From a virus: DNA of 64,000 nucleotides. The notes under the pieces were generated by a model. The model worked only from the letters and a program-made list of their open reading frames with translations. It was not told the DNA's origin and ran no database searches. Position 1 is the first letter of the stretch. Each line of letters begins with the position of its first letter. Below, piece by piece: positions 1 to 53,633 of the stretch. The position numbers were made by a program, and so were the translations under genes. The stretch spans positions 1-64,000 of the IMG/VR virus record IMGVR_UViG_3300025127_007327; one strand, 5' to 3'.

Positions 1-2
1 CA

Positions 3-560
3 TTTGAAGCAATATTGATTGAATACTTTAGAAGAGAAGGTCAGATGGAAGGTGGTGCCTATGTTAATTTAGCAATGCAAATTGAAGACAGAGATTTGAC
101 ATCATATGAGTGGGATCTAGAAACTGACGGAGAGTACAGTGACTCTTATGAATCCACTGCTAGCAATACTTTCTACTATGATCCTGAAGAATTCGGTGTT
201 AGTCTCGATGTATTAAAGCAAATCACAGACTCTCGCGACTTTAGAATTGAGTTGAGAAGACAATTATTGGAAGAACCAAGAAAAGCCGAAAATACCCAAT
301 ATTATCTGCAAATGAATGCAACAACTGTGGAACAGGGTGGGGAGATTAAATTTACCACTGTATTCTCGATAAATGTTGACGAGCCTGATATTATGGCTGG
401 ACTTTTTAGAGAGCTTGTAGAGGGCGATATGGACGATGAAGATAACCTTAATGTGGTATACAGGAGAGTAATGGCTCAAGCAGTCAAAGCACGACAGCCT
501 GCATCGATGCAAACAAATGAATCGTTAGTTAGTAATTGGAAGGACTATTTAAGATTATGA
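3..560 (+). CDS. C-terminal part of an acidic phage protein (5'-truncated by the window edge), possible internal virion protein
   Basis: Frame is open from the window start; ends NESLVSNWKDYLRL, resembling the ENWRxYL leader of downstream genes. Confidence 0.7.
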   Translation, partial: FEAILIEYFRREGQMEGGAYVNLAMQIEDRDLTSYEWDLETDGEYSDSYESTASNTFYYDPEEFGVSLDVLKQITDSRDFRIELRRQLLEEPRKAENTQYYLQMNATTVEQGGEIKFTTVFSINVDEPDIMAGLFRELVEGDMDDEDNLNVVYRRVMAQAVKARQPASMQTNESLVSNWKDYLRL

Positions 561-1081
561 GTGTTACTGAAGAAAACTTAAAACAAATTGTCATGGAAGA
601 ATTAGAACAAGTTCTTCTTGAAAAATGTTGGCCGGGCTATGAAAAGAAAGGCATGAAAAAGATGTTTGGTAAAATGTATCCAAACTGTGTCAAAAAGAAG
701 AAAGGAAAGAAACGTAAAAAAAAGCGTAAGAATGAGAATGCTGAGCTTTATGAAGCAGATCCTAAGAAGGGTACTGGAAAGAAACCAAAAGGCTCTGGAA
801 GGCGCTTATACACGGATGAAAACCCAAGTGATACAGTCTCTGTTAAGTTTTCAACCGTTCAAGACATCAAAGACACACTTTCAAAAGACTCTTTCAAGTC
901 TAAATCCCATAAACGTCAATCACAAATTATTAATTTGATACACCAACGAGCAAGGGCAGCGTATAATAATGCTAAAGACCCAAAAGTAAAAGCACGTTTA
1001 AAAAAATCATATGATTACGCTAAAAAGCGTAAAGAAGCATCAAAGAAAAAGACTCAAAGAATGAATAAGGCGAAAAAATGA
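557..1081 (+). CDS. Basic hypothetical protein with LKQIVMEEL leader, CWPGY...PNCVK motif and Lys-rich body; probable virion internal protein
   Basis: ATG 557 overlaps the upstream TGA; ACTATTTA motif at 544; LLE and LYE sites separate short modules. Confidence 0.7.
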   Translation: MSVTEENLKQIVMEELEQVLLEKCWPGYEKKGMKKMFGKMYPNCVKKKKGKKRKKKRKNENAELYEADPKKGTGKKPKGSGRRLYTDENPSDTVSVKFSTVQDIKDTLSKDSFKSKSHKRQSQIINLIHQRARAAYNNAKDPKVKARLKKSYDYAKKRKEASKKKTQRMNKAKK

Positions 1082-1320
1082 GCAAATATATGAAAGATCC
1101 AGAGTATCTTTTCACTATTTTAGCTGCTTTAGTCAAAAAAAATGATGGTATTATTAGGCTTACTGAAGACGAAATAGAAGCAGTTACTAAGAAAGATTTA
1201 ATCGGTATGTATTATGAACCTGAAAATAAAGCTGTTGTTTTCAAAGAAGTTGATCAGAAAGATATTTTAAGGGCAAAAACAATTGTCAATGAAAACCCTA
1301 ACGAACAATACGACAACTAA
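1078..1320 (+). CDS. Hypothetical protein (80 aa)
   Basis: ATGA overlap with upstream gene. Confidence 0.7.
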   Translation: MSKYMKDPEYLFTILAALVKKNDGIIRLTEDEIEAVTKKDLIGMYYEPENKAVVFKEVDQKDILRAKTIVNENPNEQYDN

Positions 1321-1885
1321 TATTCTATCAATTGACATAGATTATGCTTATAGTCCAACAATTTCAGTGTATGACGACTATATTGAAGGTGTTAGAATAT
1401 CTGAAGAAGAGCAGGAGTTGATTTTACAGGAACATAATGTGCCTAAACCAACTTGTAATCCTGAAAAGATAAAAGTTCTCGAATCTGTAATTAAAAACAA
1501 AATTAATTTAAACGCACCAATTATATTGATTGAGAATCATGATCAAATATTAGATTTTTTACCAAACAATAAACAATTAGCAATATATAATTTTGACCAT
1601 CATCATGATGTATATTATCCCGGCTGGCATTCTCTCGATACTTTAGACGAGGGAAATTGGGTTTATTTTTTGAAAGATAAAAACGTTTCAGAATATATAT
1701 GGATTAGAAACGAAGACTCTGAGAATATGGACTTTGATTTGCCAGAGCTTGACTTTTTAATAGAAGAACGATATAATATAGAAAATATGCCTATGTTTGA
1801 TTTAGTCTTCTTTTGTATTTCATCAAGATGGACAGGCTCCACAGGCAAACAAAATATTATGAGGTTGATTGATTTAATATCATGA
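1289..1885 (+). CDS. Arginase/deacetylase-fold metallohydrolase (UPF0489-like)
   Basis: LSIDIDY, ENHD, NFDHHHD and EGNW motifs. Confidence 0.55.
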   Translation: MKTLTNNTTTNILSIDIDYAYSPTISVYDDYIEGVRISEEEQELILQEHNVPKPTCNPEKIKVLESVIKNKINLNAPIILIENHDQILDFLPNNKQLAIYNFDHHHDVYYPGWHSLDTLDEGNWVYFLKDKNVSEYIWIRNEDSENMDFDLPELDFLIEERYNIENMPMFDLVFFCISSRWTGSTGKQNIMRLIDLIS

Positions 1886-2838
1886 ATGTTAGAAATTTAA
1901 TCGAAGAAAACTATTTGCACTTTAATGCTGGTGAATTGAGAGATGCCTTACGTGCTTTGGAAATCCATATCGAAAAAGGTAACAAGATATTTATCACGTT
2001 GTCGGGAGCTATGAGCACAGCCAGAATCGGCCGTTTATTGGCACCAGCCATTCAAAAAGGCTTGATTGGCGGAATCTGCTGCACCGGAGCAAACCTTGAA
2101 GAAGATGTTTTTAATGCTATTGAGGGTCATCGATATAAACAAGTTGATTGGCGTAGTTTGTCTCCGAGCGATGAAGAAAAATTAGTTAAAGATGGCTGGA
2201 ACCGCGTAACTGACACTTGTATACCTGAAAATGTTATGCAACATGTGTGGGGATTATTACTAGAATCTTGGAATGAACAAAGTGGTAAAACTCCTTATTT
2301 TCATTTGTGTTGTGTTTTAGATAAACTGATTGAAGATGGCGTTATAGTCCCACGATTAAATGAGTCTTGGGTTTGGGCAGCGCATAACGCTGGTATACCC
2401 GTATTTGTTCCCGGCTGGAGTGACAGCACAACAGGTAACATGTTTACTGCCAGTGTAAAGAAGGGTGAGATCAAAACAGGTTATAACGCTGTTGTAAGTG
2501 ATACTGAACAATTTGCGATATTAGCAAACTGGTACGAATCACAAATTACTGAATCCGGTGAAAGCCCAGCATTTCTTCAAATTGGTGGGGGTATTGCTGG
2601 AGATTGGCCGATATGTGTTGTTCCATCTTTAAGGCAAGATGAAAACAAAGATGTTCCGCATTGGGGCTACTTTTGTCAGGTTTGTGATGCACCAGCGTCG
2701 TATGGTGGGTATTCAGGGGCGCCCCCAAATGAAAAGATTACATGGGATAAAGTTTCAAGTCAAACACCTAGATTTGCTATACAATCTGATGCAAGTATTG
2801 TATTACCTTTGATATTGGACTATTTATTAACGAAATGA
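1882..2838 (+). CDS. Deoxyhypusine synthase-like protein (bacterial DHS / homospermidine synthase type)
   Basis: TLSGAMSTA, CTGANLEEDVFN, NRVTDTCIPE, QIGGGIAGD, YGGYSGAPPNEKITWDK (catalytic Lys position) and SDASIV motifs. Confidence 0.9.
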   Translation: MNVRNLIEENYLHFNAGELRDALRALEIHIEKGNKIFITLSGAMSTARIGRLLAPAIQKGLIGGICCTGANLEEDVFNAIEGHRYKQVDWRSLSPSDEEKLVKDGWNRVTDTCIPENVMQHVWGLLLESWNEQSGKTPYFHLCCVLDKLIEDGVIVPRLNESWVWAAHNAGIPVFVPGWSDSTTGNMFTASVKKGEIKTGYNAVVSDTEQFAILANWYESQITESGESPAFLQIGGGIAGDWPICVVPSLRQDENKDVPHWGYFCQVCDAPASYGGYSGAPPNEKITWDKVSSQTPRFAIQSDASIVLPLILDYLLTK

Positions 2839-2860
2839 AACTCCTACTTGAAAATTGGCG
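2835..2860 (+). repeat. 26-nt leader repeat copy 1 (ATGAAACTCCTACTTGAAAATTGGCG)
   Basis: Identical at 2835, 3259, 3630 and 3977. Confidence 0.97.
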
Positions 2861-3275
2861 AGAGTATGTGAACGAAGTGGTGGATGATGTATTCACGGGA
2901 AACTGTGGTATGTTTGGTATTGCCTTGGCTGAAGAAGCCCAAAGAAGGGGTATTGACGCAGCATTAGTATTTGCACATAACGCTGATACAGATGAAGAAA
3001 TGATCTATGGAGACTATAAAATTTACCATGTAGCCTTAAAGATCGGAGACAAGTATTATGATGGCAGAGGGGAAATCCGATTAAATGAATTAGTATCATT
3101 TATGTTCGAGGTGCCGGAAGATATGAATGTTGATGCTTTTAATCTTGCAAACCTAGACCAGATGAAAAGTGCTATTCGTCGCAACACGGCTTGGAGTGCG
3201 ACCTGCAAGGATTTCAAAGAAAAGGCAAAACAATTTTTAGATGAAATGGGGTATACAAATGAAACTCCTACTTGA
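2835..3275 (+). CDS. MKLLLENWR-leader protein 1; putative Cys-His-Asp (papain/transglutaminase-like) domain
   Basis: GNCGMFGIAL ... YHVALKIGDKYYDGRG spacing of Cys, His and Asp. Confidence 0.6.
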   Translation: MKLLLENWREYVNEVVDDVFTGNCGMFGIALAEEAQRRGIDAALVFAHNADTDEEMIYGDYKIYHVALKIGDKYYDGRGEIRLNELVSFMFEVPEDMNVDAFNLANLDQMKSAIRRNTAWSATCKDFKEKAKQFLDEMGYTNETPT

Positions 3276-3284
3276 AAATTGGCG
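3259..3284 (+). repeat. 26-nt leader repeat copy 2
   Basis: Identical 26-mer; shares a further AGAGTAT with copy 1. Confidence 0.97.
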
Positions 3285-3633
3285 AGAGTATTTAACAGAA
3301 AATATGAATATCAAGTCGAGCGATGATATAGAATTCTTAGTTCGTTCTATTCATATGGAAGAGGATGATTTTGTAGAGGGGGATCTGATAGATAGGATAA
3401 GGCAATATCCTTATTATATTCTTAAAGATATTGAACTTGATAAAATAGAGACGGCGTGGACAGATCTAGGCAAAGTTGATGATTATGCCGAAATGTATGA
3501 TCAAAGAGGCACAGAACCGCCTCCTGTCGTTTTAGATCACACACTATATACGATAGACGGTGCACACAGAGTAGAGGCAGCAAGAGAAGCGGGCAAAGAA
3601 AAAATAAAAGCTTATGTGGGGACATTCGGATGA
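3259..3633 (+). CDS. MKLLLENWR-leader protein 2; ParB/sulfiredoxin-like domain
   Basis: PPPVVL...IDGAHRVEAA...IKAYV; true start taken at the repeat ATG 3259. Confidence 0.75.
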   Translation: MKLLLENWREYLTENMNIKSSDDIEFLVRSIHMEEDDFVEGDLIDRIRQYPYYILKDIELDKIETAWTDLGKVDDYAEMYDQRGTEPPPVVLDHTLYTIDGAHRVEAAREAGKEKIKAYVGTFG

Positions 3634-3655
3634 AACTCCTACTTGAAAATTGGCG
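3630..3655 (+). repeat. 26-nt leader repeat copy 3
   Basis: Identical 26-mer, preceded by TTCGG as in copy 4. Confidence 0.97.
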
Positions 3656-3980
3656 CGATACATCGTGGGAAACTGATAATGATAAGGTTACAATTGGGGA
3701 TGTGGTTGATTATTTGGGAGATGAGACTGTTAATATTAATGTTTTAGAACTCTCGCAACAATTACCGTCTTTGCCAACACAAGGAGCAGAGAGAGTAGCT
3801 GCCGCAAGTTTAGAGTATCCAATTAACGTTGTGAAGAGCGGTGGACAATATCGATATGTTCTGGATGGTAATCATCGTCTTCAAAAAGCAATCGATAAAG
3901 AGGTCGAGAGTATAAAAGCAAAAATCTTGGATCTAGATAATACAGAAACTCCAGAAGTGTTTAAGAGAACGTTCGGATGA
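3630..3980 (+). CDS. MKLLLENWR-leader protein 3; ParB/sulfiredoxin-like domain
   Basis: YPINVV...VLDGNHRLQKA...IKAKIL. Confidence 0.75.
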   Translation: MKLLLENWRDTSWETDNDKVTIGDVVDYLGDETVNINVLELSQQLPSLPTQGAERVAAASLEYPINVVKSGGQYRYVLDGNHRLQKAIDKEVESIKAKILDLDNTETPEVFKRTFG

Positions 3981-4002
3981 AACTCCTACTTGAAAATTGG
4001 CG
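3977..4002 (+). repeat. 26-nt leader repeat copy 4
   Basis: Identical 26-mer. Confidence 0.97.
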
Positions 4003-4582
4003 AAAGTATTTAAATGAAAATATTGAAACAGCAACTCGTTTATCTATTTTTGATTTTGATGAAACAATAGCATTTTCTGAAGGATATATTATTGTTATAG
4101 ATAAACAAACTGGTAAACAATTTAATATTTCATCTCAAGAAGAATATGACAAACTTAAAAATGATGGTGGTTACGAGTTTGATTTCTCTCCACTTGATCA
4201 AGTAAACAATGCAGTTGAGAATCCAAATATTACTTCTATTTTACGAGACAGACTAGCTGACTCAAATACGCAAGTCATGATTTTAACTGCTAGAGCACCG
4301 GTGGCAATCGACGATATTCACAGAGTATTACAAACTTTTGATGATCCAATTAAAACAAATAATATTATTATGATTGGCAACGAAGGTGGAAATAAAGGTG
4401 AATATGTTAGGGATGTCATACTTTCAAAATATGATAATATTAGAGAAATAGAATTTTATGATGATTCTGATAATAATATTGTTGACATGAAAGCAGTAAA
4501 AAACGAAACATCTGAAAATGGTAGAGTGGAAAACTTTGATATTTATAAAGTAGTAGAAGGTATTCCAGAAAAAGTGCCCTGA
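3977..4582 (+). CDS. MKLLLENWR-leader protein 4; HAD-superfamily phosphatase (PNK/RNA-repair-like HAD type)
   Basis: IFDFDETI (motif I), ILTAR (II), NKG (III), FYDDS (IV). Confidence 0.8.
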   Translation: MKLLLENWRKYLNENIETATRLSIFDFDETIAFSEGYIIVIDKQTGKQFNISSQEEYDKLKNDGGYEFDFSPLDQVNNAVENPNITSILRDRLADSNTQVMILTARAPVAIDDIHRVLQTFDDPIKTNNIIMIGNEGGNKGEYVRDVILSKYDNIREIEFYDDSDNNIVDMKAVKNETSENGRVENFDIYKVVEGIPEKVP

Positions 4583-4612
4583 GACAACTAGTTATATCGT
4601 GGAGGGTTCACG

Positions 4613-4930
4613 ATGTCCAGTAACGGTTGGGAAAATTATTCTAAACTTGTTTTACAACAACTAGAAACTTTGTCTGGTGGTATTGATGCATTGCGCTTGG
4701 AATTACAAGACGTTAAATATCAACTAACTGAACTTAAAGCAAGAGAAGACAAAGTTCAAGAATTAAAAGCTTGGAAGGATAAGATGGACGATATAGCATC
4801 ACCTCCACAGCTAAAAGTCGCATTACAAGAAATAGAAGAACTTAAATTATATAAGACAAAAGCAATGACTGCTTTCATGGTTGTTCAATTCGTTATGGCG
4901 ACTGCAATCGCTTTGAGTAGTTACTTCTAA
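4613..4930 (+). CDS. Coiled-coil protein with C-terminal transmembrane helix
   Basis: GGAGG RBS; heptad pattern; hydrophobic AMTAFMVVQFVMATAIAL. Confidence 0.75.
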   Translation: MSSNGWENYSKLVLQQLETLSGGIDALRLELQDVKYQLTELKAREDKVQELKAWKDKMDDIASPPQLKVALQEIEELKLYKTKAMTAFMVVQFVMATAIALSSYF

Positions 4931-4931
4931 G

Positions 4932-5243
4932 ATGGCAAAGGCTAAAAAAATAACTAAAGAAGCCTTACAAATTTTAAAATTAGCTGCGAAACAATTTAAT
5001 GGTTCAATACCGTATGAAGATGATTTAGAAGATATAGAACTCATACCAGAGGTCGGAATAAGCGGAACAGGTAATTTATTTTGTTATAGCCCTGATTCTA
5101 AATCATTTATAAGTCTTAAAAGAGGACAAAAAGCGGTTATATTAGATGATTATGACGGAGACGATGAAGTTTTAATTTATACTTATGATGGCTTTGTTGT
5201 TATAATACACGTAGATAATCTGATTTTTACTGGCTTTGATTGA
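4932..5243 (+). CDS. Hypothetical protein (103 aa)
   Basis: Abuts neighbours in the operon. Confidence 0.7.
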   Translation: MAKAKKITKEALQILKLAAKQFNGSIPYEDDLEDIELIPEVGISGTGNLFCYSPDSKSFISLKRGQKAVILDDYDGDDEVLIYTYDGFVVIIHVDNLIFTGFD

Positions 5244-5374
5244 TGTTATTTGAAATTAATAAATTCTGGAAAACAGCATTTTCAATTTTATTCTTTTTCA
5301 CACTCTATCATGTTATTGGATTTCAGCCAACAGTTATTTTATTATTGATTCTTTTGTTAAATTTTACTAATTAA
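5243..5374 (+). CDS. Small two-TM membrane protein (43 aa), absent from the ORF track
   Basis: TGATG overlap; MLFEINKFWKTAFSILFFFTLYHVIGFQPTVILLLILLLNFTN fills the gap. Confidence 0.6.
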   Translation: MLFEINKFWKTAFSILFFFTLYHVIGFQPTVILLLILLLNFTN

Positions 5375-5384
5375 ACAACAGGGC

Positions 5385-5591
5385 ATGATAAAAAAAATTA
5401 AAAAATTTTACACCTATGATTATGATGGTGTGTCAAAACCCATAAGTGCAAATTATTTAGTTAATTGTATAATTGAAGGCGAAGTTAAATCAGTTGGTAT
5501 TTTTGAGCACTCTGAAGAGGCGGAAGAGCATTTAGCTAAATATTTAGGTAAAGGCTTGTGTGCTTGGATTGTCAACAATAATGAACGTTAA
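5385..5591 (+). CDS. Hypothetical protein (68 aa)
   Basis: ORF preceded by ACTAATTA. Confidence 0.6.
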   Translation: MIKKIKKFYTYDYDGVSKPISANYLVNCIIEGEVKSVGIFEHSEEAEEHLAKYLGKGLCAWIVNNNER

Positions 5592-5838
5592 AAGTGAGTT
5601 TGGTAGTTTAGTTTCAGAAAAATTTAATGTTGGTGATATTGTTCAATGGACCACTTGGGATGAAGAAACTAGCGAATGGAACTTAAATTATGGTATTTTA
5701 CTAAAAGTTGAAAATGTGATAAAATCAAACCGTATGGTTTCTATATCGACTGTTAAGCCTTTAAATGAACAATATGAAGAAAAGGAATTGTTTACTATTA
5801 GTTTAAAACTAGTAAAGAGTAGCAGCTTGAATAGTTAA
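5581..5838 (+). CDS. Small SH3/KOW-like phage protein
   Basis: KFNVGDIVQW...YGILLKV pattern. Confidence 0.6.
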   Translation: MNVKSEFGSLVSEKFNVGDIVQWTTWDEETSEWNLNYGILLKVENVIKSNRMVSISTVKPLNEQYEEKELFTISLKLVKSSSLNS

Positions 5839-5852
5839 TTTGAACGTTAATA

Positions 5853-5860
5853 ACTATTTA
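5853..5860 (+). promoter_or_regulatory. Putative late promoter ACTANTTA (representative copy)
   Basis: Also at 544, 2819, 4587, 5366, 6253, 9109, 16757, 49867 and 63501, each 5-35 nt before a start codon. Confidence 0.6.
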
Positions 5861-5874
5861 TATTGAGTTTTTCT

Positions 5875-6849
5875 ATGTTTAAAATTATTTCACCAATGGT
5901 AAAACAATTTTTACCTTTCGCGCAAAAAAGAATGGGTTTCAAAAATCCACCGAAACTTTTTTTGCGAAGTGATGATAACAACGCAGAAAAACCACTGGGC
6001 AAAACAGCGTATTATGACCCAGATAATAGAAGTATTACAGTGTATGTCACCGGTCGTCATCCTAAAGATGTCATGCGTTCAATATCTCATGAGTTAGTAC
6101 ATCACTCTCAAAATTGTAGAGGCGAATTTGATAAAGTTGGTCCTATGGGTGATGGGTATGCTCAAAATGATGAGCACTTAAGAGAAATGGAACGTGAAGC
6201 ATATGAAGTTGGAAATATGTGCTTCAGAGATTGGGAAGACAGTGTAAAAAATACTACTTATTTTGAACATCTACAAAAAGGAGAAAAAAAGATGTCTACT
6301 AAAGATTGGAAAAACAAAGAAGTAACTCAGCTTCTCGCAGAAGCTTGGGGTTTTAAATTTAACTCACTTGATGAGTTTAATGAATTCAGTGGTGAGGGTG
6401 AACTTCAAGCTGAAGGTGAAGAAGAAGCAGTTGAAGAATTAGCAATGGCTAGTCGTTCTGAAAGACCTCGCAAACCAAAACTGCAAAGAGATAGGCGCCC
6501 AGATTCTGATAGAGAAGAGGAAGATAAGGTTGATGAAAGTGAAGAACTTGATGAAGGCACCGAAGAGGAGCTTGACGAGCAGTCAAAGAGTGACTTGCCC
6601 GATCGTGGCGCTGGACGTGCTGCTGGCGGCCGTCGGTTAGACGAAGAAGAGGAAGATCTTGATGAAGCTGCAAAACCTGATTATATTGATTTAGATAAAG
6701 ATGGCGACAAAGAAGAATCTATGAAGAAAGCTGCTGCTGATGCTAAGAAGAAAAAGCATGGTAAAGATGACGATGATAAGAAAAATGAGTCCGTTGATCC
6801 TTTACAAGAAGCAATTGCTAACTTACTTCGTAAGCATCTTAGAGGTTAA
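5875..6849 (+). CDS. HExxH zinc-metallopeptidase-like domain fused to an acidic prohead-core/scaffold-like region
   Basis: SISHELVHHSQ ... EREAY; C-terminal half with repeated LDE sites and KPDYIDLDKDGDKEESMKKAA. Confidence 0.7.
   Translation: MFKIISPMVKQFLPFAQKRMGFKNPPKLFLRSDDNNAEKPLGKTAYYDPDNRSITVYVTGRHPKDVMRSISHELVHHSQNCRGEFDKVGPMGDGYAQNDEHLREMEREAYEVGNMCFRDWEDSVKNTTYFEHLQKGEKKMSTKDWKNKEVTQLLAEAWGFKFNSLDEFNEFSGEGELQAEGEEEAVEELAMASRSERPRKPKLQRDRRPDSDREEEDKVDESEELDEGTEEELDEQSKSDLPDRGAGRAAGGRRLDEEEEDLDEAAKPDYIDLDKDGDKEESMKKAAADAKKKKHGKDDDDKKNESVDPLQEAIANLLRKHLRG
6292..6849 (+). CDS. Nested in-frame gene (MSTKDWKNKEV...), scaffold-like
   Basis: Internal ACTACTTA (6253-6260), AAGGAG RBS (6278-6283) and in-frame ATG 6292. 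Confidence 0.6.
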   Translation: MSTKDWKNKEVTQLLAEAWGFKFNSLDEFNEFSGEGELQAEGEEEAVEELAMASRSERPRKPKLQRDRRPDSDREEEDKVDESEELDEGTEEELDEQSKSDLPDRGAGRAAGGRRLDEEEEDLDEAAKPDYIDLDKDGDKEESMKKAAADAKKKKHGKDDDDKKNESVDPLQEAIANLLRKHLRG

Positions 6850-6944
6850 GAACATGTCCGGTAAGTATAAAAGTTGCTCTTAAATTGAGCAGGAATAAGT
6901 TTATACAAAAACTATTATTATTACATTCAAAAGAGGAACAAACA

Positions 6945-7196
6945 ATGTCATTAGACAAAGCGTGGAAAGATTTTTTAAATGAGAGTGTTGATGAAAAGAC
7001 TATCTTTACCTATATTCAAGGTCTCCAAGAAATTATTTCCAATCTTAAACCAAGAACACTAACTGAAAAACGAAGGTTACAGTTAGCGAGACAGCACTTA
7101 CGTGAAGTTAAAAGATTTGCACGTAAATTGAATAATGACATTGGTGTTCTTCAAGAAAAACTTAATATACTGGAAGAGTCAAAAGGAGATGAATAA
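6945..7196 (+). CDS. Coiled-coil protein with AWKDFLNE leader-like N-terminus
   Basis: GAGG RBS before ATG 6945. Confidence 0.7.
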   Translation: MSLDKAWKDFLNESVDEKTIFTYIQGLQEIISNLKPRTLTEKRRLQLARQHLREVKRFARKLNNDIGVLQEKLNILEESKGDE

Positions 7197-9139
7197 TGGC
7201 GAAAGCTAATACTCATCTCACACACTTAGAAGAATTGGTGCTTACCCAAGGCTCAGATGGTTATAACATGGCTAGAGCCTTCCTTCTAGAGCTTTTAAAG
7301 GTTCTTAAGGGTAACACCAAGTCTAAGATTCAAACGTCCGTCAAATGGGACGGAGCGCCTGCTATTTTCGCTGGCACAAATCCTGAAAATGGTAGGTTCT
7401 TTGTTGGTACTAAATCTATTTTTAATAAAGTACCAAAGATTAATTATACCGAAGAAGATATTGTTAAGAATCATGGGCACGCGCCCGGACTAGTTGATAA
7501 ATTAACCAAAGCTTTACGGTATTTGCCGGCACTCAAGATCCAAAACATTCTGCAAGGTGATTTTATGTTTGACGATGGAATGGTGTCGACTATTGAAGTT
7601 GATGGTGAGCCTCATTATCGTTTTAAACCAAACACCATTACATATACAGTCCCTGTAAACTCTGATCTTGGAAGAGAAATTGGTGAGTCTAAGTTTGGAA
7701 TTATTTTTCACACAACTTATAATGATTTAGATGGCAATGCTAGTTTTGGCGCTGACATATCTGGACTTAGAAAAACACCCGGAGTGTGGTTTGATGATGC
7801 ATACTTCGATGATAATACCGGCGTTGTGACGTTAACGGAGGATGAAGAGGCAGAAATTGTTAGATTAGTAACAGAGGCTGACGAAGTTAATGAACGCATT
7901 AATTATGAAGACCTACCCGCGGCACTTTTAAACATTTATATTAATAGTGAAATTAAAGCTGGTAACTTTTTAGAAGATCCAGAAAGCTCGTATGAGGGAT
8001 TCTTAAACTGGTATTCACAACGTTCTCAAAAGAAGATAAACAATCTTAAAAGTGTGAAAGGTAAACAAAAAGCAACACAAAACACTAGACAGACTTTACA
8101 ATCTTTTAAAGAAAGAAGAGAAGACATAGAGAATATTTTTAGGATTAGTCGATTATTATTTGAAGCTAAAAACATTTTTATTCAAAAATATAACAACGCT
8201 GTTTACAGAACAAGACATTTTATTGAAAATGAATCTGGAGATTTAGTTGCTAGTAATCCAGAAGGATATGTCGCTGTGGATCATCGAGGCAATGGAATAA
8301 AATTTGTTGATAGATTAGAATTTAGTAAAGCTAATTTTGCCATTGATAAAAGTGATAAGTTCTCGTCTGAACTAAATGAAGATGAGGATGAAGACGATGA
8401 TCCGGTTGTTGATGACGAATATCCAAAAACAATTGCCATTGTTCCCGGTGCATTTAAGCCACCACATAGAGGACATTTAGACATGGTGCGAAAATATGCT
8501 AACATGGCTGATGAAGTTATTGTTTTAATTTCTCGCCCTACTAAAAGCGGTAGAAGACTACCAAACGGTAGAGAGATAACTGCTGAAGATTCGTTGAAAA
8601 TATGGAAAACTCTAGCGGCCGGTATGGGCAATGTTGATATTAGAATTTCGCCCCATGCATCACCATTAACTGCTGCATATGAATACATTGGCGATGAAGG
8701 ACCAATTAATGTTGGTGATAGAGTTATGTTGGGTTGTAGCAATAAAGGTGGCGATTGTAAAAGATGGACTGGAGCAGTAAAGTACATTAAGCAAGGAGTT
8801 GAATTGGTACCGGTGACCGGTGTGGAGCCAACACAAAGAGATAGTGGGCAGCCATATAGTGCAACAGATTTTCGTAATGCGCTCGGTGATCCTAATAACA
8901 ACCGCGAGGAAATCGCTGATTTTGTTGGTGCAGAGAACGTTAATACAGTGTTAGATATACTTGGGCTCGATACCATCGATGAAATGTCAGGAGCGGGTGC
9001 TGTTGGGGGATATGCAGCCCCTTTGGGATATGGGTCGGTTAGACTCAAAAACAAAAAGAAAAAGAAAAACGAATATATCGATTTAAGTTTGATTGACGAG
9101 GTTATGAAACTAATTAAGGAAAGAGGCATTGTAAAATGA
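7196..9139 (+). CDS. Ligase-like adenylation domain (DUF6267-like) fused to a HIGH-family nucleotidyltransferase
   Basis: VKWDG, LQGDF, PEGYV, IKFVDR; then PGAFKPPHRGH and YSATDFR; AGGAG RBS. Confidence 0.75.
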   Translation: MAKANTHLTHLEELVLTQGSDGYNMARAFLLELLKVLKGNTKSKIQTSVKWDGAPAIFAGTNPENGRFFVGTKSIFNKVPKINYTEEDIVKNHGHAPGLVDKLTKALRYLPALKIQNILQGDFMFDDGMVSTIEVDGEPHYRFKPNTITYTVPVNSDLGREIGESKFGIIFHTTYNDLDGNASFGADISGLRKTPGVWFDDAYFDDNTGVVTLTEDEEAEIVRLVTEADEVNERINYEDLPAALLNIYINSEIKAGNFLEDPESSYEGFLNWYSQRSQKKINNLKSVKGKQKATQNTRQTLQSFKERREDIENIFRISRLLFEAKNIFIQKYNNAVYRTRHFIENESGDLVASNPEGYVAVDHRGNGIKFVDRLEFSKANFAIDKSDKFSSELNEDEDEDDDPVVDDEYPKTIAIVPGAFKPPHRGHLDMVRKYANMADEVIVLISRPTKSGRRLPNGREITAEDSLKIWKTLAAGMGNVDIRISPHASPLTAAYEYIGDEGPINVGDRVMLGCSNKGGDCKRWTGAVKYIKQGVELVPVTGVEPTQRDSGQPYSATDFRNALGDPNNNREEIADFVGAENVNTVLDILGLDTIDEMSGAGAVGGYAAPLGYGSVRLKNKKKKKNEYIDLSLIDEVMKLIKERGIVK

Positions 9140-11440: not shown

Positions 11441-11776
<336 letters not shown>

Positions 11777-13055: not shown

Positions 13056-13132
13056 TGCCCCTTAGCTCAGTTGGTTAGAGCAGCGGACTGTTAATCCGCT
13101 TGTCCTCGGTTCGAGTCCGAGAGGGGCAGCCA
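13056..13132 (+). tRNA. tRNA-Asn (GTT)
   Basis: Acceptor TGCCCCT/AGGGGCA, anticodon arm GCGGA-CTGTTAA-TCCGC, TTCGAGT loop, encoded CCA. Confidence 0.95.
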
Positions 13133-13991: not shown

Positions 13992-14214
13992 TAAAGTTTT
14001 AATTAAAGGTTTTACTAAACCAGTCGTTAAAGTTATATTAAAAAAAAGATATGAGCCAACCAAAAATATGCTTGGTGTTGCTGGTTGGCATGCAAAAATA
14101 ATTTATAAAAAAGATGTTTATAAGTTAATAAAATCTGGTGTACCATATAAGAAAGATGAAAAACCCATGGTTTGGGTTTTTGATTGGCAAATAATTAAAA
14201 AATTGCCCGCATAG
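13960..14214 (+). CDS. Basic hypothetical protein (84 aa)
   Basis: ATG 13960 (MTSKTKY); stop falls inside tRNA-Thr. Confidence 0.6.
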   Translation: MTSKTKYTINDKVLIKGFTKPVVKVILKKRYEPTKNMLGVAGWHAKIIYKKDVYKLIKSGVPYKKDEKPMVWVFDWQIIKKLPA

Positions 14215-14280
14215 CTCAACTGGTAGAGCAACGGTTTTGTAAACCGTAGGTTGGGGGTTCAAGTCCCTCTGCGGGCACCA
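14205..14280 (+). tRNA. tRNA-Thr (TGT)
   Basis: Acceptor GCCCGCA/TGCGGGC, anticodon arm ACGGT-TTTGTAA-ACCGT, encoded CCA. Confidence 0.95.
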
Positions 14281-42186: not shown

Positions 42187-45100
42187 ATGTCAGAATCAAA
42201 ATATTTAAAATTTCAAGATATCGACAACGACGGACTTATTGACGTTTGTGACGATGATTTAACAACACCAGAACTCCCTTGTAAGGGACCATGTGTACCT
42301 GATCCAAATTCATTTATTCCTGATTGGAAAAGTCAGAATATTAATAAACCTTTTTTAAACACAAAAATATGTCATTATCAAGTTACAAAAGTTACATCAT
42401 ATAACGAAACTGCTCCCCGAAGCATTATTAATAGCGGAGATGAGGCGGCTGTTGAGCAATCATTAGAAGAAAAATTTGAAGAGTTTGTAGATGAAGCAAT
42501 TAGCAGTTTATTAGATTTTAATGGTAAGGTAAACAACAGAAAATCTAGAGAACATGTACGCTCTGGTATAGAATTTAAAAAATTCGACTTAGCAGCAAGA
42601 CCCGGTTCATTTTTAAAACTTCTGTATTCAGTGCCGTTTGATTTTATTTATTATCTTGCTGATGCTGAGTTAGAAGCCACCGAAGAAGAAGGTGAGGACG
42701 AAAACGGACCCGGCTGGGAAAATATAATGTTTAACGCTGAACATTTATCATCAAACATGATTCGTGTTAGAAAAGCATTACGCTTATATTCTGACATGCT
42801 TAAAGTATCTGCTCAAATTGGTGAAGGCAATGCCTATGTATTTGATTCTAATAACAATCCATTAAGAATTTTCAGTCTTGAGGGTTACGGAGACAGGGCT
42901 TTTGTTGACTTTGGATCTTCTGGTATTCTACTAGAGATGATCAATGATCTAAAAACTTTTCTTATTTCAAAGGGTAAATCATTACCAGATGTTGGAGTTG
43001 GAGGAAATCCATTCGCGGGTGCTTTCAGAGAGCGAATTACTAAAATAAAGTTTGGTTTCAAAAATAAAGAACTCAGAGTAATCCGAGTTTGGACAGTTGA
43101 GTGTGGCAACAAACCTTCGTTATATAATAAAAAGAGTGGGTCTATAAAACTTTTACTTCTTTCAAGTGCATGGAATGATAAAACAGCAATTAATTACTTT
43201 TTAAATCTTAAAAAAATGTCTGATGCGCTTGAAGCTAGAGTGCAGATTCCTATTAAAGATTTTGTTGAAACTTTTACATATGTGCCTGATGGTGTTGTAA
43301 AAATTAAATTTGTTCCAAATTATGAATTAACAAATAGTGCATGTCTCTTAAAAACTTTATCTGACGGAGCATCAGAATTTGGTCAAGATTTGCTAGACGA
43401 TGTGTTTGGCTTAGGTGAGCTAATACAATATATTTATCATGAAAGCTTATGTAGAAATACGAACGAGGAAGTTTTAAAAGATAAAGAAAAACTTGGTGTT
43501 GGAACCGCAACCGCACCTCCTGATCCTAAAGGTAAAGGTATTAAACCTGACATGGGTGCGCTTAGTAAAGAAACTCAAATGATTATCGCTAGTAAGCTTG
43601 CCGCTTTACAAAAACAAAAGCAATTTGATGCAGATGATGATGCAATTGTTAGAGGATGTTTGGCAATTACAAACTCAGCAAGAAAATCATTCACATCGGC
43701 AGCAGGTGGGCTTTTAGGTGCCGATCTTCCTTTTACAGACATAACCTCAGCAGCCGGCGGCGCAGCAACATTGCCCGGAACAGAAGGATTATGGAAAGAA
43801 TTTCTTCAAAGTTTAAAAATATGCGGACTTTTAGATTTAATTGTCGATTCTGTTGGCTGTTTATTTCAGGGATTATCATTAGATGATGCTCTGCCCGTTA
43901 TAGTCAGAAATGCACTTAACGCATTAGGAATTGAAAGAATGGGTGACTTATTTGTTGGTTTGCCACCAGATAAGCAAGTACAGCTAGAGGCGTTAGTTAA
44001 GAAAAAGTTAGAGGATAGAGGAGAAATATATCCCGGTAAACCTTGGGAAAATAAAGCGTATTTAGATGCAGCAGCTAGCATTCAAGATACTTCATCTTCA
44101 AAACCATATGATGCCAATAAACCACCAACACCAAAGGAAGTTGATGAAGAAATTAACAAAGCACAAGGTGGCACAATATTACCTGAATTAGCTTCGACAT
44201 CATCTAATAAGGCAAATTCAGATAGCGTAATGTCAGTTTATATTGAAGCTTTAATTGAAGTTTATAGTGACAATTTAATTGAGATAGTTAATGAACTTAA
44301 TAAATTTCCCGGTGCTCAGCTTATAAAACATGTACTAGCCTCAGTTACATGCCCAAGACCTCCTTTATTTAATCCGGGTTTTGGTGATTTTATAAAAAGT
44401 TTAGATTTAGATTTTTGTAGAAAAGTTGATGAAATCGTATTACCAGATGGTCCTAGTGGTGTTATAAGTGAGTTAAAACTTATGTGGGGTGATTTAAAAT
44501 TTGCTTTGGTTAACACAGCATCAATAATTCTTGGATTATTAATTGTTATACTTGTAGAAAGAATTTTCAGCAAGCTTTGCTCTTTAGCTTCAAGTGCAGT
44601 GTGTGCGGCTTTAGAAACAACAGGTGAGTTATTGGCTGCATTACCGGGAGCAATCGCTGGTAAAACTTCTCTAAGCGATGTTTTTAGAGAGGCAATCTGT
44701 GGACCTGATGCAAGTGACGAACAAGTTGATGCAGCAATTATAGATTTAATGGCGATTGTTGGATTAGGACCAACTGCTTTTGCAAATCCTGATAGAACAA
44801 AGGCTTTCGCCAATGATTTATCAATTTCACTAAGCAGAAAAGAATTTGGTGATTTACTTTTGGGAGAAGCTTCAGAAGAAGCATTAGAAATTGCAGAACA
44901 ATTAATTGAGTTTGTTTATCCTGAATTTGGAGATGCTCTTACAAATAAAAATGCAATTGGTAGATTTTTCAAAGCTATCGGAAACTTTCTACCATTAGAT
45001 TACCGAGAAATTTTAAATGAAGCTTCTAACAATTCTGCTGGAGAATTTGGAACCGCGAACATTCCAGCAAATCCGTCAATTTGTGCATCGCCACAGCAGA

Positions 45101-48100
45101 TAATAGATTTTAAAAATTTAAGAGCAGAAATTCTCAGTGGTAGAGTTTCTGAAGCACAAGCAGAAAAATTATATTGTGATTTAAGGGATGACACTTTGCA
45201 AGATTTAGAAGATCTCGCAGAACTTGGCGAAGACCCAGAGGAATATTTCAGAAAAAATCTTCCACCACTTACGGGTGAGCCGGGTTGTAGTGATGGCTTA
45301 TTCCCATTTGAAACACCTGAGATGGCTCTTGTTAATAAAGGTTTAGTGGTTTCAAGCCTAAGAGCTTTAGAAAAAGAATATATTCAAGATATGTTTGGCA
45401 CCGGTTTTACTTTTATGGGCTCTGGGGACAAAAACTTTGGATTTTTGAATATGATTTTGTGCGATACACAGGGTAATCCTTTATCAAATCATCATCGAAA
45501 AGCATATAATCGAGCACGATATGTTAATTTTGCAACTAATCTTCCTAATGGCGGTGAGGCAAAAACTGGTATTTTAGCAATATTTCAAAGAGATAAAGAC
45601 TTCGGCCGCCAAAGAGGTCAATATCCATACTACGTTGGAGAATGGTTAAGAAGACAATATCTAAACGCCGCTGAAGTTGATGGAATATTGACACCCGGTT
45701 TCGCTGAAATTAGTGACGGAGGTAAGGATCTTCAAAAGCATCTTGTATTTTCCTCAACCAATATGGCAATCGGTTCAAAAAAATATAAAGTAGACGCTGA
45801 AGAAATGGGATACGACAATCTTTTCGGCAAGCAAGGTAGAAGCACTTTTACATTACCTAGTTTTGGCTACAACACTGAAATTGGTGATTTTAGTAGAGAA
45901 CTTAATGCACTGGGCTCCGTTGTTGCTGCGCCTGTGTCGGTCGTTACTTCTGCTGTTACATTCGGACTTGCTGATTCTCCAGTAGAAAGAACTATAGAAA
46001 TTATAAGATTGCCAAGAAAAGGTGACCCAGATAATAAAAGAGCAGTGGGACCAAATGTAGCTCGAAATACCAACGGTGCAGATATCGTACTAAGTTTTAA
46101 AGATAATGCCATGGGAACTAGAAGAAGAATTGTAGGCATACCTATACAAAATTACGATGCTTTTGGTAGACTGGTTGAATACGAGGGCAACGAATGGGCT
46201 TACGGTTTTGAAGTTCAATGTTATTATTCTGACATTGAAACAGTTCCCAATACTCCACCAGACGAAGAAAGATTTAGAAATAGACCTGATGACAATATGC
46301 GCGTGCAAATTGTAGAAAAGTTAAATTTAGGATCTGATAGAAAATATGCTAGCCCAATTGCAAAAGATTTTTTTAGTGATGAAGTAGTACCAACCCCTGC
46401 TTTTGATTTACCTAATTGGATTGAAGATATTCCAATTGTTGGGTGGGTAACAGAAAAAACTATTCAATTGATAATGTATCCTTTTACATGGATTACTAAA
46501 CAAGCCATTTCGGCTATAAAGTGGGCAACATCAGAAAAAATATATCGCTCTAGAGGTATGGAGTTTTTATCAATAGATGACACTTTAGACGTTTTTGCAC
46601 CAGATCCCAGAGAATCTAATACAGATTCTAATAAAGTTAAATCACTTGACATTAATGATTATTCACAATATCTAACAACAACGCAATATCATAGACCATT
46701 ACCCCCACAAGTATACTTATTAGCTGATATGTTGGGAGAAACAGCTAGTGCTGAAATTAAAGTTCGATACGACAGTATAATGACGCAAGCGTACAAAGAT
46801 TTTTGTAAAATTATTGGAGAAAATCAAAATGGATGGTTGTATGGTGCAAATTATGATTTCCTTACCCAAGACGATTTAGACTATGGATTTGATGATGATG
46901 GAACATTCGTGTCATATGATGATTTTCTTATTCCAGATGGTGACGGCGGAATGCGCGAACTTGAAGATGAAGATATGCGTTTAGGTATTAGTTTTAATGA
47001 GTTCAGATTAGGAAAAGAAAACGCTAGAGTTTTATATTTAGATCCTACAGTTTTTGGAGGTTCTTACAGTAGTCCGGCTCTTTATATAAAACCTAAAAGG
47101 TTTGATGGTTGGTGGGGATTTGTTCAAGCATTCTTTCCAGACGAAACAGGCTGTAAGCCATCTAACAAAAACATGATTGACTTTGATGAGCTTGAAAAAT
47201 TTGTTAGTGATAACTACGCTAATTTTCCAGATGATGAAAGACTATACGATGATTTTGAGTGTGTAAGGCAAGTACCATTTGATAGAATATTGCCACGAAC
47301 TGCTAAAATGTCCGTATTTGTTTTAATTCTAGCTGCTGTCAGAATTTATGTTAGCACTCATGTCATGAAGACTATTGGCACATTTTCAGCAATCAAGCCA
47401 GATTTTACTAAAAACTTTAGTTCTGCTTACTCTGGTTACATAGTGGAAACTATGGAACAAGACTTTAAAGATGCACAAGGACCATTTTGGGAAGCTTTTA
47501 ATACTTTTAAAGACGAGGAATTTTGGTATGGCTTTTTAGAACAGTCAGTTGAGGCTTATAACTTCTTAGTTGAATCTGGGGCATTACCTATGCCTAAGCC
47601 GGGTGGTTATATTCAAGATGCCATTGACGAAATTAACACTTTACAAAAACGTTTTGCATTTGCTTATCGTCCAGATACAACTCATACATATATAAATGAC
47701 GTTGGTAATGAAACAGAACAAAGGGTACCCGGACTCTGGAGATCAAAATTGACAGGAGATGCCGGCTTTTTTGAAACTCTTAAAGGTTATAGAGAGCGTA
47801 AAAATTTCGAGGGTGTCAAAGAAGTGGAAAGTTCTGCAAAAATTATTTTACAACAAATTGTTAATTTTGAATTAGCCAAAATGAGCGAGAAACTTGTTAA
47901 TAACATGTATAATGTCGGATTTAATCCGCAAATTCATAATATGGATTATTGGATATTAAAAAATAAATGTGCCGGCTCTAGTTTAGACTATGCTAGTTCT
48001 AAAGTTGTTGAAACATCTGTTCAGGTGCCTACTAGATTAAATCCTGATCCGCTGGGAATTGGTGCTACTTTCCCCGGACCTTATTTTACTAATGGCGGGC

Positions 48101-51684: not shown

Positions 51685-53633
51685 TGATTAAAAATTATAC
51701 CGCATCTGCAGATAATACAATTGTAAGTGCGTTTAAAGTAAATTTACAAACTCGTGGTACTGGCTCTAATACTGGTCAAGCTGACGTTTTAGAGGTTTTT
51801 TCGATTTACGGTCGCCAAACCACTTCGTCACAAGAGCTTGCAAGAACACTGATACAATTTCCAATTGATCAAATTTCTAATGATCGAACCGCTGGTAGAA
51901 TCCCTGCAAGTGGTAGCGTTAATTTTGTTTTAAATCTTTATAATGCAGAAACATCGAAAACTGTTCCAAGAAATATGATCTTAGTTGTTAATCCTCTTTA
52001 CAATAGTTGGCAGGAAGGAACTGGTCTTGATCTCGAAGGGTATAGAGACGAAACCAAGGGCGCTGAAGGCAGTAACTGGATGGTTAGAGCCAATACTCCC
52101 GGTGTTGCTGAAAAAACAAAATTCACTTTTACATCAGATACAAAAACAGAATACGGTGCTGGCTCTGGAGCTAACTATATAAAGCTCTATAACGGCACCA
52201 CAAGATATAATATTTGGTTTAACGATGGCTCTGGCGACACCGCACCGGTTGCAGATGGGACAGAAGTTCAAGTAAGTCTTGCTGCTGGTTCTGATGATAC
52301 TGCTGCTGAGTTTGCAGAAAAATTTAAGGTTGCTGTAGATGGTCTCTCTGATTTCAGTGCGACTCGCGACGGTGCTGCTGTTACGGTGACAGCTACTGCT
52401 CTTGGTCCAACGTTAAATGCTGAAAAAGTGGGCACTATAAGCCCTATAACAATTGAGGTTACTCAAAATGGCACAAAAGAAACTCCATGGCACTCAGTCT
52501 CTGGCGGTGGCGATTTCTTATCTAGTTCCACCACGCCGGCAATATATGCAGACTATCATTACACACAGCTTTTTGAGTCTGGTTTGGAAGATTTGGAAAT
52601 TGATATTACCGCTTTGGTAGAAAGATGGATTGAAGGCGCCGGTGGTGGTGGTGATGCAGGTGGCATTGCCAACTATGGAATGGGAATTAAGTTAACTTCT
52701 AGTCAAGAAGCTTTCGGGGTTGCCCAATTGGTTCATGCTTCATCAGATAAACCAACACAAAACATACGTGATGGCGCCACAACATCTTTTTATACGAAAA
52801 GATTTTTCTCTCGCGGGACGCAATATTTCTTTAAGAGACCTTTAATTCAAGCAAAATGGGACTCAAGGCGTTTTGATCATAGGGGTCAATTCTTTATTAG
52901 TAGCTCACTGGCTAAATCTGAAAACATTAATGATTTATATTTTTACAACTATGTTAGAGGAAGATTAAGAAGTATTAATTCCAGTGATTCAGTAACAGTT
53001 TCTATTTACTCTAGCTCGGCTGGAGAGCCAGCCGGTGCAACTTTAAAAATTAAAAACATTAATAATAATCTACAGTATGCAGTCTCTGCTAATGAAGTTT
53101 CCACTGGTGTCTATAAAGCTAGATTACAAGTTACTAGCTCGCTCACAAACTTACATGATGTTTGGAGTTTAGGTAGCCAGCAAATATTTACCGGCTCAAT
53201 TACATCGGTTCCTATGGGAAGCACAACACATCCAAGAGAGCCTGTTTACTTTACTAATATTACTAATTTACAAAATTCTTATGCGCCTACACAAACAGCA
53301 AGATTTAATTTATATGTTAGAGAAAAAAACTGGAACCCAACAATTTTTACAAAAGCAAGAGCAAGTGCCCCTACTTTATCAATTGCAACAGCATCTTATC
53401 GTGTTATTAGAACGTTTGATGATTTAGAAGTAGTGGGACACGACACAGGCTCTGGCTTGCTTTCCACAGGTCTTTCTTTCGATGTATCAGGCAACTATTT
53501 TGACTTTGATATGAGATTATTGCAGCCCGGTTATGAATATGCGTTTAAGTTAGCTTTTTATGATGATGAATTAAATTCATGGCAAGAACAAAAAAGAGAA
53601 TTTAAATTCAGAGTAAGTGATTATGAGTATTAA
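51684..53633 (+). CDS. Virion structural (baseplate-associated) protein
   Basis: Follows gp6-like; ADNTI, WQEGTG, NYGMGIK; beta-rich. Confidence 0.65.
   Translation: MIKNYTASADNTIVSAFKVNLQTRGTGSNTGQADVLEVFSIYGRQTTSSQELARTLIQFPIDQISNDRTAGRIPASGSVNFVLNLYNAETSKTVPRNMILVVNPLYNSWQEGTGLDLEGYRDETKGAEGSNWMVRANTPGVAEKTKFTFTSDTKTEYGAGSGANYIKLYNGTTRYNIWFNDGSGDTAPVADGTEVQVSLAAGSDDTAAEFAEKFKVAVDGLSDFSATRDGAAVTVTATALGPTLNAEKVGTISPITIEVTQNGTKETPWHSVSGGGDFLSSSTTPAIYADYHYTQLFESGLEDLEIDITALVERWIEGAGGGGDAGGIANYGMGIKLTSSQEAFGVAQLVHASSDKPTQNIRDGATTSFYTKRFFSRGTQYFFKRPLIQAKWDSRRFDHRGQFFISSSLAKSENINDLYFYNYVRGRLRSINSSDSVTVSIYSSSAGEPAGATLKIKNINNNLQYAVSANEVSTGVYKARLQVTSSLTNLHDVWSLGSQQIFTGSITSVPMGSTTHPREPVYFTNITNLQNSYAPTQTARFNLYVREKNWNPTIFTKARASAPTLSIATASYRVIRTFDDLEVVGHDTGSGLLSTGLSFDVSGNYFDFDMRLLQPGYEYAFKLAFYDDELNSWQEQKREFKFRVSDYEY

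Follow-up and report, generated by a model that had tools for sequence, protein, structure and literature searches.

A 26-nucleotide coding leader as the probable joint of exchangeable gene cassettes and a candidate head-packaging tag in marine T4-like phages

The virus record IMGVR_UViG_3300025127_007327 carries, within its first 64,000 nucleotides (the stretch analyzed here, which we call the window), an array of four genes that begin with the same 26 nucleotides. These nucleotides form the 5' end of a short N-terminal leader, and comparison of the array with its relatives gives good support to the view that the leader is the joint at which gene cassettes come and go, change order, and move between diverged phages. 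For the peptide that the leader encodes, a head-packaging tag is the best available explanation; based on analogy and gene context, we put its probability at roughly 0.55. The window is the first 64 kb of a 97,459-bp record with a CheckV completeness of 53%, and the lineage is one of uncultured marine T4-like myoviruses of about 185–205 kb.

The 26-mer, ATGAAACTCCTACTTGAAAATTGGCG, occurs as four exact copies on the + strand (Table 1), separated by 424, 371, and 347 nt. A first-pass annotation of this DNA had described these copies, and both an exact-match scan and a repeat finder bear it out. There are no additional copies in the window at up to three mismatches (0 expected in 100 shuffles), and the rest of the record contains no further 26-mer. 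Every copy starts an open reading frame (ORF), of 146, 124, 116, and 201 aa, and encodes MKLLLENWR with three different Leu codons, in the order CTC, CTA, CTT, just as had been claimed. Past the 26-mer, the repeat finder detects similarity among the copies for about 18 nt, after which it ends, and the upstream flanks are unrelated. The extension WR-x-Y-[VL]-x-E that the annotation had seen in three copies is present in copies 1, 2, and 4. Copy 3 lacks it: in an alignment with 12 orthologues, eight codons (x-Y-[IV]-T-E-D-W-R) have been lost between two TTGGCG repeats, and all 12 orthologues retain them. Three of the four leader ATGs overlap the upstream stop codon as ATGA, and the stop of ORF1 (which ends in NETPT) is a TGA within leader 2. 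We also confirmed that TTCGG lies 5' of copies 3 and 4, so that the C termini of ORF2 and ORF3 both read TFG.

We compared positions 1–9000 of the window by blastn with the loci fetched and found that relatives 91–97% identical to the window differ from it by entire cassettes. The conserved upstream anchor of the cassette site is a deoxyhypusine-synthase-like gene (DHS), and different cargo follows the same 3' end of this gene in relatives. If the four cassettes are called CH, ParB1, ParB2, and HAD in order, the window reads DHS-CH-ParB1-ParB2-HAD, and relatives read DHS-HAD (loci L014 and L131), DHS-CH-HAD (L023, L117, L121, and L122), DHS-ParB2-HAD (L040), and DHS-(393-aa cargo)-HAD (L116). 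The array of the window, with CH, two ParB/sulfiredoxin (Srx)-like genes, and a HAD phosphatase, is one of several arrangements at this site. The flanking alignments overlap within the leader in each arrangement, and so the junction is seamless. Assembly chimeras are argued against by the recurrence of the arrangements in contigs of different metagenomes. These whole-cassette differences strongly support the earlier proposal that the repeat is a recombination joint that allows genes to be swapped. Fixed gene content with synonymous divergence of the leader, the pattern that the annotation had set against its own proposal, is the opposite of what the relatives show. A search of the genome and related contigs for the 26-mer found it lineage-wide, with cargo that varies in number and order; this distribution, and a TGA in both off-frames of the 26-mer, are points that go beyond the annotation.

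A second cassette site lies after the conserved gene ORF-A, whose C terminus bears a leader-like motif. In relatives this site is filled by leader cassettes or by a solo leader ORF of 10–11 aa (L103, L140, L063, L018, L020, and L044). In L103, the ParB1 and CH cassettes, 97% identical to those of the window, stand at the second site behind the ORF-A orthologue, in reversed order. L140 and L090 contain the same cassettes at 96–97% identity in backbones that are just 72–80% identical to the window, and a 97%-identical copy of ParB1 is found at another locus in both L103 and L140. The presence of near-identical cassettes in diverged backbones points to recent transfer between diverged phages. Logan contigs from four marine metagenomes break at leaders, and many differing loose ends are found on both sides of the breaks. 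Our evidence is confined to these breaks and ends, since contig depth, which differed between cassettes, cannot rank genes. Many IMG/VR contigs (L023, L103, L133, L171, and others, as well as the record of the window) start or end a few kb from leader arrays. The repeat probably breaks assemblies, and array sizes are therefore likely to be underestimated. The ORFs scanned near the array showed no integrase, and homologous recombination between leader copies is presumably the mechanism of exchange.

The leader also has properties of a junction between genes. Among 357 copies, the upstream ORF stops in an ATGA overlap at 183 and at the internal TGA at 42 (together 63%). The internal TGA is retained in 324 copies (91%), and this retention could be the reason that CTT or TTT almost always serves as the third Leu codon. 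Solo leader ORFs of 10–11 aa (MKLLLENWRG[ILM] followed by a stop) occupy otherwise empty sites in L018, L020, L044, L022:3537, L067, L049, L101, and L029; the stop codon of the mini-ORF directly adjoins the ATG of the conserved gene downstream, and AGGA lies a few bases 5' of that ATG. These mini-ORFs could be empty cassette sites, landing pads, or upstream ORFs that serve in coupling. The four joints do not fold unusually (z from −1.25 to +1.31), and Rfam gave no match at the joints, its only matches in the window being a tmRNA and two tRNAs elsewhere. A translational operator for RegA, a regulator that binds start regions, was also considered; the RegA family (Pfam Translat_reg) had no match in four records, a search in which control genomes were equally silent.

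Among the matches listed, more than 119 stretches of IMG/VR contigs have the 26-mer without a mismatch, with up to six copies per locus. We scanned for MK(L/F)(L/F)(L/F)ENWR, a pattern that requires the peptide only and imposes no codon bias, and obtained 169 distinct sites, 67 of which (40%) have the exact 26-mer. The share expected from the product of the loci's own codon frequencies is about 0.04%, and the observed share is thus about 1000-fold higher; CTC, CTA, and CTT make up 9%, 12%, and 24% of Leu codons in the loci. Variants of the 26-mer are mostly synonymous or change L to F, I, or M. Immediately 3' of nucleotide 26, x-[YF]-[LIVM]-x-E is kept and synonymous sites vary freely, and diverged homologues (P0034, P0035, P0037, and the copies in G001) encode the same peptide with other codons. 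Given the excess of the 26-mer and the preservation of the peptide in distant homologues, both the peptide and the nucleotides of the first nine codons are conserved.

The fetched loci encode 329 distinct leader proteins of at least 60 aa (66–837 aa, median 202), which fall into at least 130 clusters. Only residues 1–14 are common to these clusters, and the exact 26-mer is found in at least one member of 59 of them. The Pfam families represented include AAA_33, Pkinase, GNAT, NUDIX, Zeta_toxin, PolyA_pol, RNase_T, ART-PolyVal, and DUF192, and the repertoire also covers HAD and ParB/Srx; most cluster representatives have no Pfam match at an E value of 0.001 or better. Three complete genomes with terminal repeats (186–204 kb) have five to nine leader copies each, mostly in one array. 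When the array and a 44-nt leader stretch were compared by blastn with 50,697 phage records, we obtained nothing or chance-level matches only, and no cultured phage among them has the leader. Leader peptide strings were not found in the published literature, where the 13 text matches were unrelated words. Two contigs of metagenome-assembled genomes contain the 26-mer, one in a Woesearchaeota bin and one in a Gammaproteobacteria bin; both are probably mis-binned viral sequence and were not used to assign a host.

The genomic context of the leader points to the prohead. In the window's own record the portal is of the T4 type (Pfam Portal_T4, 4.6e-75), and genes for a large terminase and a baseplate wedge protein are also present; all three complete leader-bearing genomes encode a protease of the gp21 family (Peptidase_S77, 1e-30 to 1e-33) and a Gp23 capsid protein (about 1e-60). 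The motif [YF..][LIVM]-x-[ED] is found at residues 11–14 in 81% of leaders, and 95% have an [LIVM]-x-E ending somewhere in residues 12–22. We fetched 80 loci with the protease, of which 57 had a recognizable protease ORF and 54 a scorable ORF downstream of it, and scored the core motif W-[RKNM]-x-[YFW]-[LIVMS]-x-[EDG] within the first 40 residues. The motif was present on the ORF directly downstream of the protease gene at 26 of 54 loci, compared with 3 of 406 other ORFs. This downstream ORF occupies the position of gp22 in T4 and has the consensus MSDWSSF...DAWRxYLxE. Its product has no PHROG or Pfam name (nor do the protease-adjacent proteins P0037 and P0038 have a PHROG name), and so "scaffold" would be a label by gene position only. 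Among the protease-adjacent proteins of L199–L278, the N terminus is conserved and the length of the body is highly variable, from about 190 to 890 aa. Leader-type genes are likewise found just 5' of the protease gene at several loci; MKLLLEHWNRYLQEE in G001 is one example.

Structural prediction places the leader apart from the protein that follows it. In an AlphaFold (AF2) model of ORF4 made from 30 homologues (pLDDT 89), residues 2–11 form a predicted helix that is undocked on the fold, and residues 1–12 have pLDDT values below 50 despite their invariance in the alignment. In several HAD cargoes the catalytic DxD strand starts directly after the tag. The tag thus looks like an add-on that lies outside the fold.

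By analogy, the leader system may work like the capsid-targeting sequence (CTS) and internal proteins of T4. The T4 CTS is a 10-residue N-terminal propeptide, and gp21 cleaves after L/I-x-E (PMC9026906); the CTS is sufficient for encapsidation (PMC9026906; PMC3012670). In T-even phages the leader is the sole common part of the internal proteins, whose genes lie in variable hotspots (PMC12373910). Both the CTS, which gp21 removes from Ip1–3 and as the Alt propeptide, and the leader described here are short N-terminal sequences that are the sole common part of unrelated, non-essential proteins; both begin with MK and end with L/I-x-E, both belong to phage lineages with a gp20-type portal, a gp21-type protease, and a gp23-type capsid protein, and in both the genes cluster in variable hotspots (PMC9026906, PMC3012670, PMC12373910). 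The first 32 nt of the CTS-coding start are identical in T4 ipII and ipIII (NC_000866), which provides a precedent for a nucleotide-identical packaging leader. When the leader is set against the T4 CTS (NC_000866), the agreement is limited to M1, K2, E6, and the terminal [IL]-x-E, and sequences of this length do not allow statistics. The systems also differ: the CTS has 10 residues (MKTYQEFIAE) and the leader 14 (MKLLLENWRxYLxE); the T4 cargo consists of a few small basic inhibitors, whereas the cargo here comprises at least 130 clusters, mostly acidic and often recognizable enzymes; and the 26-nt identity here is exact across more than 100 contigs of diverged phages and is accompanied by a second leader class.

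Other systems share single aspects of this organization. The ejection proteins gp53 and gp54 of the giant phage SPN3US have 15 conserved N-terminal residues, with a protease motif, on diverged head proteins (PMC5694885), but these are paralogues with long propeptides, whereas here unrelated cargo stands behind a nucleotide-identical joint. As far as the papers that cite them describe these loci, the hypervariable ip loci of T-even phages (Repoila et al. 1994, cited as ref. 27 of PMC12373910 and ref. 23 of PMC3012670) likewise carry different genes at the same site in related phages, each with a conserved leader start. Compared with what those papers describe, the indels here are resolved to the leader, the same cassette is found at two loci and in diverged backbones, and arrays reach five to six tandem cassettes. 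Integron arrays, like those described here, are tandem sets of unrelated promoterless genes with a short conserved joint (attC) and whole-cassette variation; here, however, the joint is coding (a start codon and a tag), has no attC-like structure, presumably relies on general homologous recombination, and belongs to a lytic phage. The polyvalent proteins of phages and conjugative elements, reportedly treated by Iyer et al. in 2017, have domains that are thought to be delivered with DNA. Their repertoire is said to overlap with the cargo here (ParB-like, ART-PolyVal, zeta toxin, kinases, and nucleases), but they are reportedly giant fusions, whereas here the genes are separate and small, each with its own leader.

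We propose that a portable 14-residue leader, MKLLLENWR-x-[YF]-[LIVM]-x-E, of which the 26-mer is the invariant 5' end, marks exchangeable accessory genes. At the DNA level, cassettes would be exchanged by homologous recombination between leader copies. Because the 26-mer carries an ATG together with a TGA in both other frames, it would terminate the upstream gene and start the next one, usually through the ATGA overlap. At the protein level, cargo would be docked by its leader on the prohead core, where the protease-adjacent protein bears W-R-x-[YF]-L-x-E; the gp21-type prohead protease would then remove the leader after Glu14, and the trimmed enzymes would be packaged and injected together with the DNA. 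The earlier interpretation is well supported in its recombination joint, and its head-packaging tag, cleaved after Y-x-x-E, is plausible and consistent with the gene context; the part that it suggested for the injected enzymes, as anti-defence effectors, is hypothetical. In its fullest form, the proposal describes an integrase-free, integron-like system in which a 26-nt coding joint lets any gene recombine in and be coupled, packaged, and injected, and in which more than 100 enzyme effectors would form a common pool with rapid exchange among diverged phage genomes; we advance this form tentatively, at less than even odds.

A number of observations weigh against a packaging tag, or against parts of the proposal. 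The record of the window is 53% complete and stops before the genes for the protease and the capsid protein. The protease-motif ending L/I-x-E is missing from copy 3 of the window, and this shortened copy and the solo leader ORFs indicate that the DNA element persists without the full tag. The cargo bodies are mostly acidic (median isoelectric point 4.9), in contrast to the basic internal proteins of T4, and many cargoes are enzymes of nucleotides or RNA, which need not be packaged in order to act. Chimeras assembled at the repeat could make the shuffling look greater than it is, though the same arrangements are found in independent assemblies. The same genome also has a second leader class, M-x-I-T-x-x-x-L-K-Q-I-I-x-E-E, which lies beside the protease gene in relatives as well; it looks nearer to the F-I-A-E ending of T4, and two tags with one destination need explaining. 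Finally, the conservation of synonymous sites and of rare Leu codons exceeds what a peptide tag alone explains, and the joint, through frequent recombination, the off-frame stop, and translational coupling, accounts for part of the features that the tag leaves unexplained.

Some of these points suit an N-terminal interaction, localization, or control tag with a destination other than the capsid, such as a cytoplasmic hub, or an inhibitory propeptide or degron that is removed late. The cargo consists mainly of acidic enzymes (HAD, Nudix, kinases, GNAT, RNase T, and poly(A)/CCA nucleotidyltransferase), the second leader class, which resembles the CTS more closely, is encoded by the same phage, and the leader helix is undocked. 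Against such a tag stand the concentration of the core motif beside the prohead protease gene and the fit of the leader ending to the gp21 cut motif, and in T4 the precedent for unrelated proteins with only a leader in common is a packaging leader (PMC12373910); we consider it unlikely, and cassette exchange at the leader would hold under it too. The excess of the exact 26-mer, the retained rare CTC and CTA codons, the internal TGA and its use as a stop for upstream ORFs, the solo mini-ORFs with their nearby AGGA, and the position of ACTANTTA, which ends 5–8 nt 5' of many leader ATGs, would be expected if the leader were a nucleic-acid module, that is, a translation start and coupling joint (an ATG, stops in both off-frames, and a favorable 5' coding region) that doubles as a recombination site, possibly on late mRNAs with short leaders, with the peptide as a passenger. 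A mere passenger would not be expected to vary overwhelmingly by synonymous or L to F/I/M changes, to continue as x-[YF]-[LIV]-x-E beyond nucleotide 26, where synonymous change is free, or to be held in diverged homologues with other codons, and neither RNA structure nor an Rfam match was found at the joints; this explanation is rather improbable. That the four genes are paralogues or recent duplicates with a common, functionless N terminus is suggested by ORF2 and ORF3, which read as distant paralogues, but the cargo is too diverse for this (at least 130 unrelated clusters and many Pfam families), and the identity ends sharply past the leader, with unrelated upstream flanks. We regard it as extremely improbable. 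A head-packaging tag on a recombining joint is our preferred explanation.

The first-pass annotation had spoken of four unrelated enzyme genes, which slightly overstates the case: the bodies are mostly unrelated and ORF4 is HAD-like, but ORF1 is without an assigned activity, and the products of ORF2 and ORF3 appear to be distant ParB/Srx paralogues (Table 1). The only lead to the function of CH is a weak YunG-like match (ESM Atlas, Pfam), and its profile had no significant match in the PDB. The ParB2 profile matches ParB, SbnI, and sulfiredoxin chains in the PDB, with a best E value of 0.015; the ParB/Srx matches of ORF2 and ORF3 are weak but consistent. ORF4 is a HAD phosphatase by predicted fold, as its model matched MDP-1, the Legionella HAD effectors Lem4 and Ceg4, and AphA in Foldseek; its Pfam match alone is sub-threshold. 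A search of PDB sequences with the ORF4 HAD profile gave spurious matches, and identity was settled by the fold search instead.

Table 1. Leader copies, cassette genes, and associated features of the window
Feature	Position	Strand	Remarks
ORF-A C-terminal leader-like motif, LVSNWKDYLRL then stop	519..560	+	conserved gene 3-560; second cassette site, empty here
Deoxyhypusine-synthase-like gene (DHS)	1882..2838	+	Pfam DS 2e-37; TGA stop overlaps leader 1 ATG
ACTATTTA, candidate promoter motif	2819..2826	+	8 nt 5' of leader 1 ATG, inside DHS coding end
Leader copy 1	2835..2860	+	exact match, MKLLLENWR
Cassette 1, CH (ORF1), 146 aa	2835..3275	+	invariant GNCG, H, and D residues
Leader copy 2	3259..3284	+	exact match
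Cassette 2, ParB1 (ORF2), 124 aa, ParB/Srx-like	3259..3633	+	DGAHR motif; phrog_1033 4e-4
Leader copy 3	3630..3655	+	exact match; tag shortened, x-Y-[IV]-T-E-D-W-R deleted
Cassette 3, ParB2 (ORF3), 116 aa, ParB/Srx-like	3630..3980	+	DGNHR motif; phrog_17560 4e-9
Leader copy 4	3977..4002	+	exact match
Cassette 4, predicted HAD-superfamily phosphatase (ORF4), 201 aa, FDFDET	3977..4582	+	fold; Pfam HAD_SAK_1 2.6e-4
Small ORF beginning MSLDKAWKDFLNES	6945..7196	+	motif scan; diverged core motif W-[KR]-x-[YF]-L-x-E

The motif ACTANTTA occurs 23 times on the + strand of the record and once on the − strand, mostly 5–40 nt before start codons. In the window it is found at 544, 2819, 4587, 5366, 5853, 9109, 16757, 49867, and 63501, with more copies beyond in G000. 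It precedes the baseplate wedge gene, other genes of the structural region, and the first leader, and it lies within 40 nt upstream of 44 of 357 leader copies, compared with a background of 0.7%. ACTANTTA is a candidate phage promoter, and its placement would suit joint expression with structural genes. Three complete relatives also have it, about 20–30 nt 5' of the gene next after the one for the capsid protein. Of the sequencing runs on record that contain the stretch, none is listed as RNA. We considered and dropped a promoter inside the leader itself (TTGAAA, or TATTTA, which resembles ACTATTTA), as the leader ATG is where the ORFs begin and the part downstream changes at synonymous sites.

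Members of the second leader class, in the form M-x-[IV]-T-x-E-x-L-K-x-I-[IV]-x-E-E, are found in the record on a very basic, Lys-rich protein of 174 aa that begins MSVTEENLKQIVMEE (window 557–1081), and the class is also represented on the last ORF of the record, which begins MNITVEELKSIIAEE (G000 97272–97459; L190:17272–17457). Some proteins (P0034 and P0037) carry both motif classes. Downstream of the cassette region, window positions 7196–9139 encode a 647-aa fusion of DUF6267 (3.6e-97) and a cytidylyltransferase-like nucleotidyltransferase domain, which is 70–75% identical in many relatives. Elsewhere we noted a phage tmRNA at 11441–11775 (Rfam, 128.8 bits), two tRNAs at 13056–13129 and 14205–14277, and giant ORFs of 2427 aa (42187–49470) and 3307 aa (53617–63540) that flank baseplate genes. 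A homologue of the tubulin/FtsZ-family GTPases (Pfam Tubulin, 1.2e-7) is encoded at G000 86290–87426 (L190:6290–7426) in this T4-like phage.

A nucleotide-exact joint offers a concrete mechanism by which lytic phages may exchange accessory genes without the need for a dedicated recombinase. Should the leader be a packaging tag, the protein kit injected by T4-like phages of the ocean would be far larger and richer in enzymes than the few small inhibitors known from T4; it would include phosphatases, ParB-like NTPases or nucleases, kinases, Nudix hydrolases, acetyltransferases, and ADP-ribosyltransferases, and the tag alone would reveal such genes from sequence. The 14-residue tag would then be a possible means of placing foreign proteins in the capsids of non-model phages as well.

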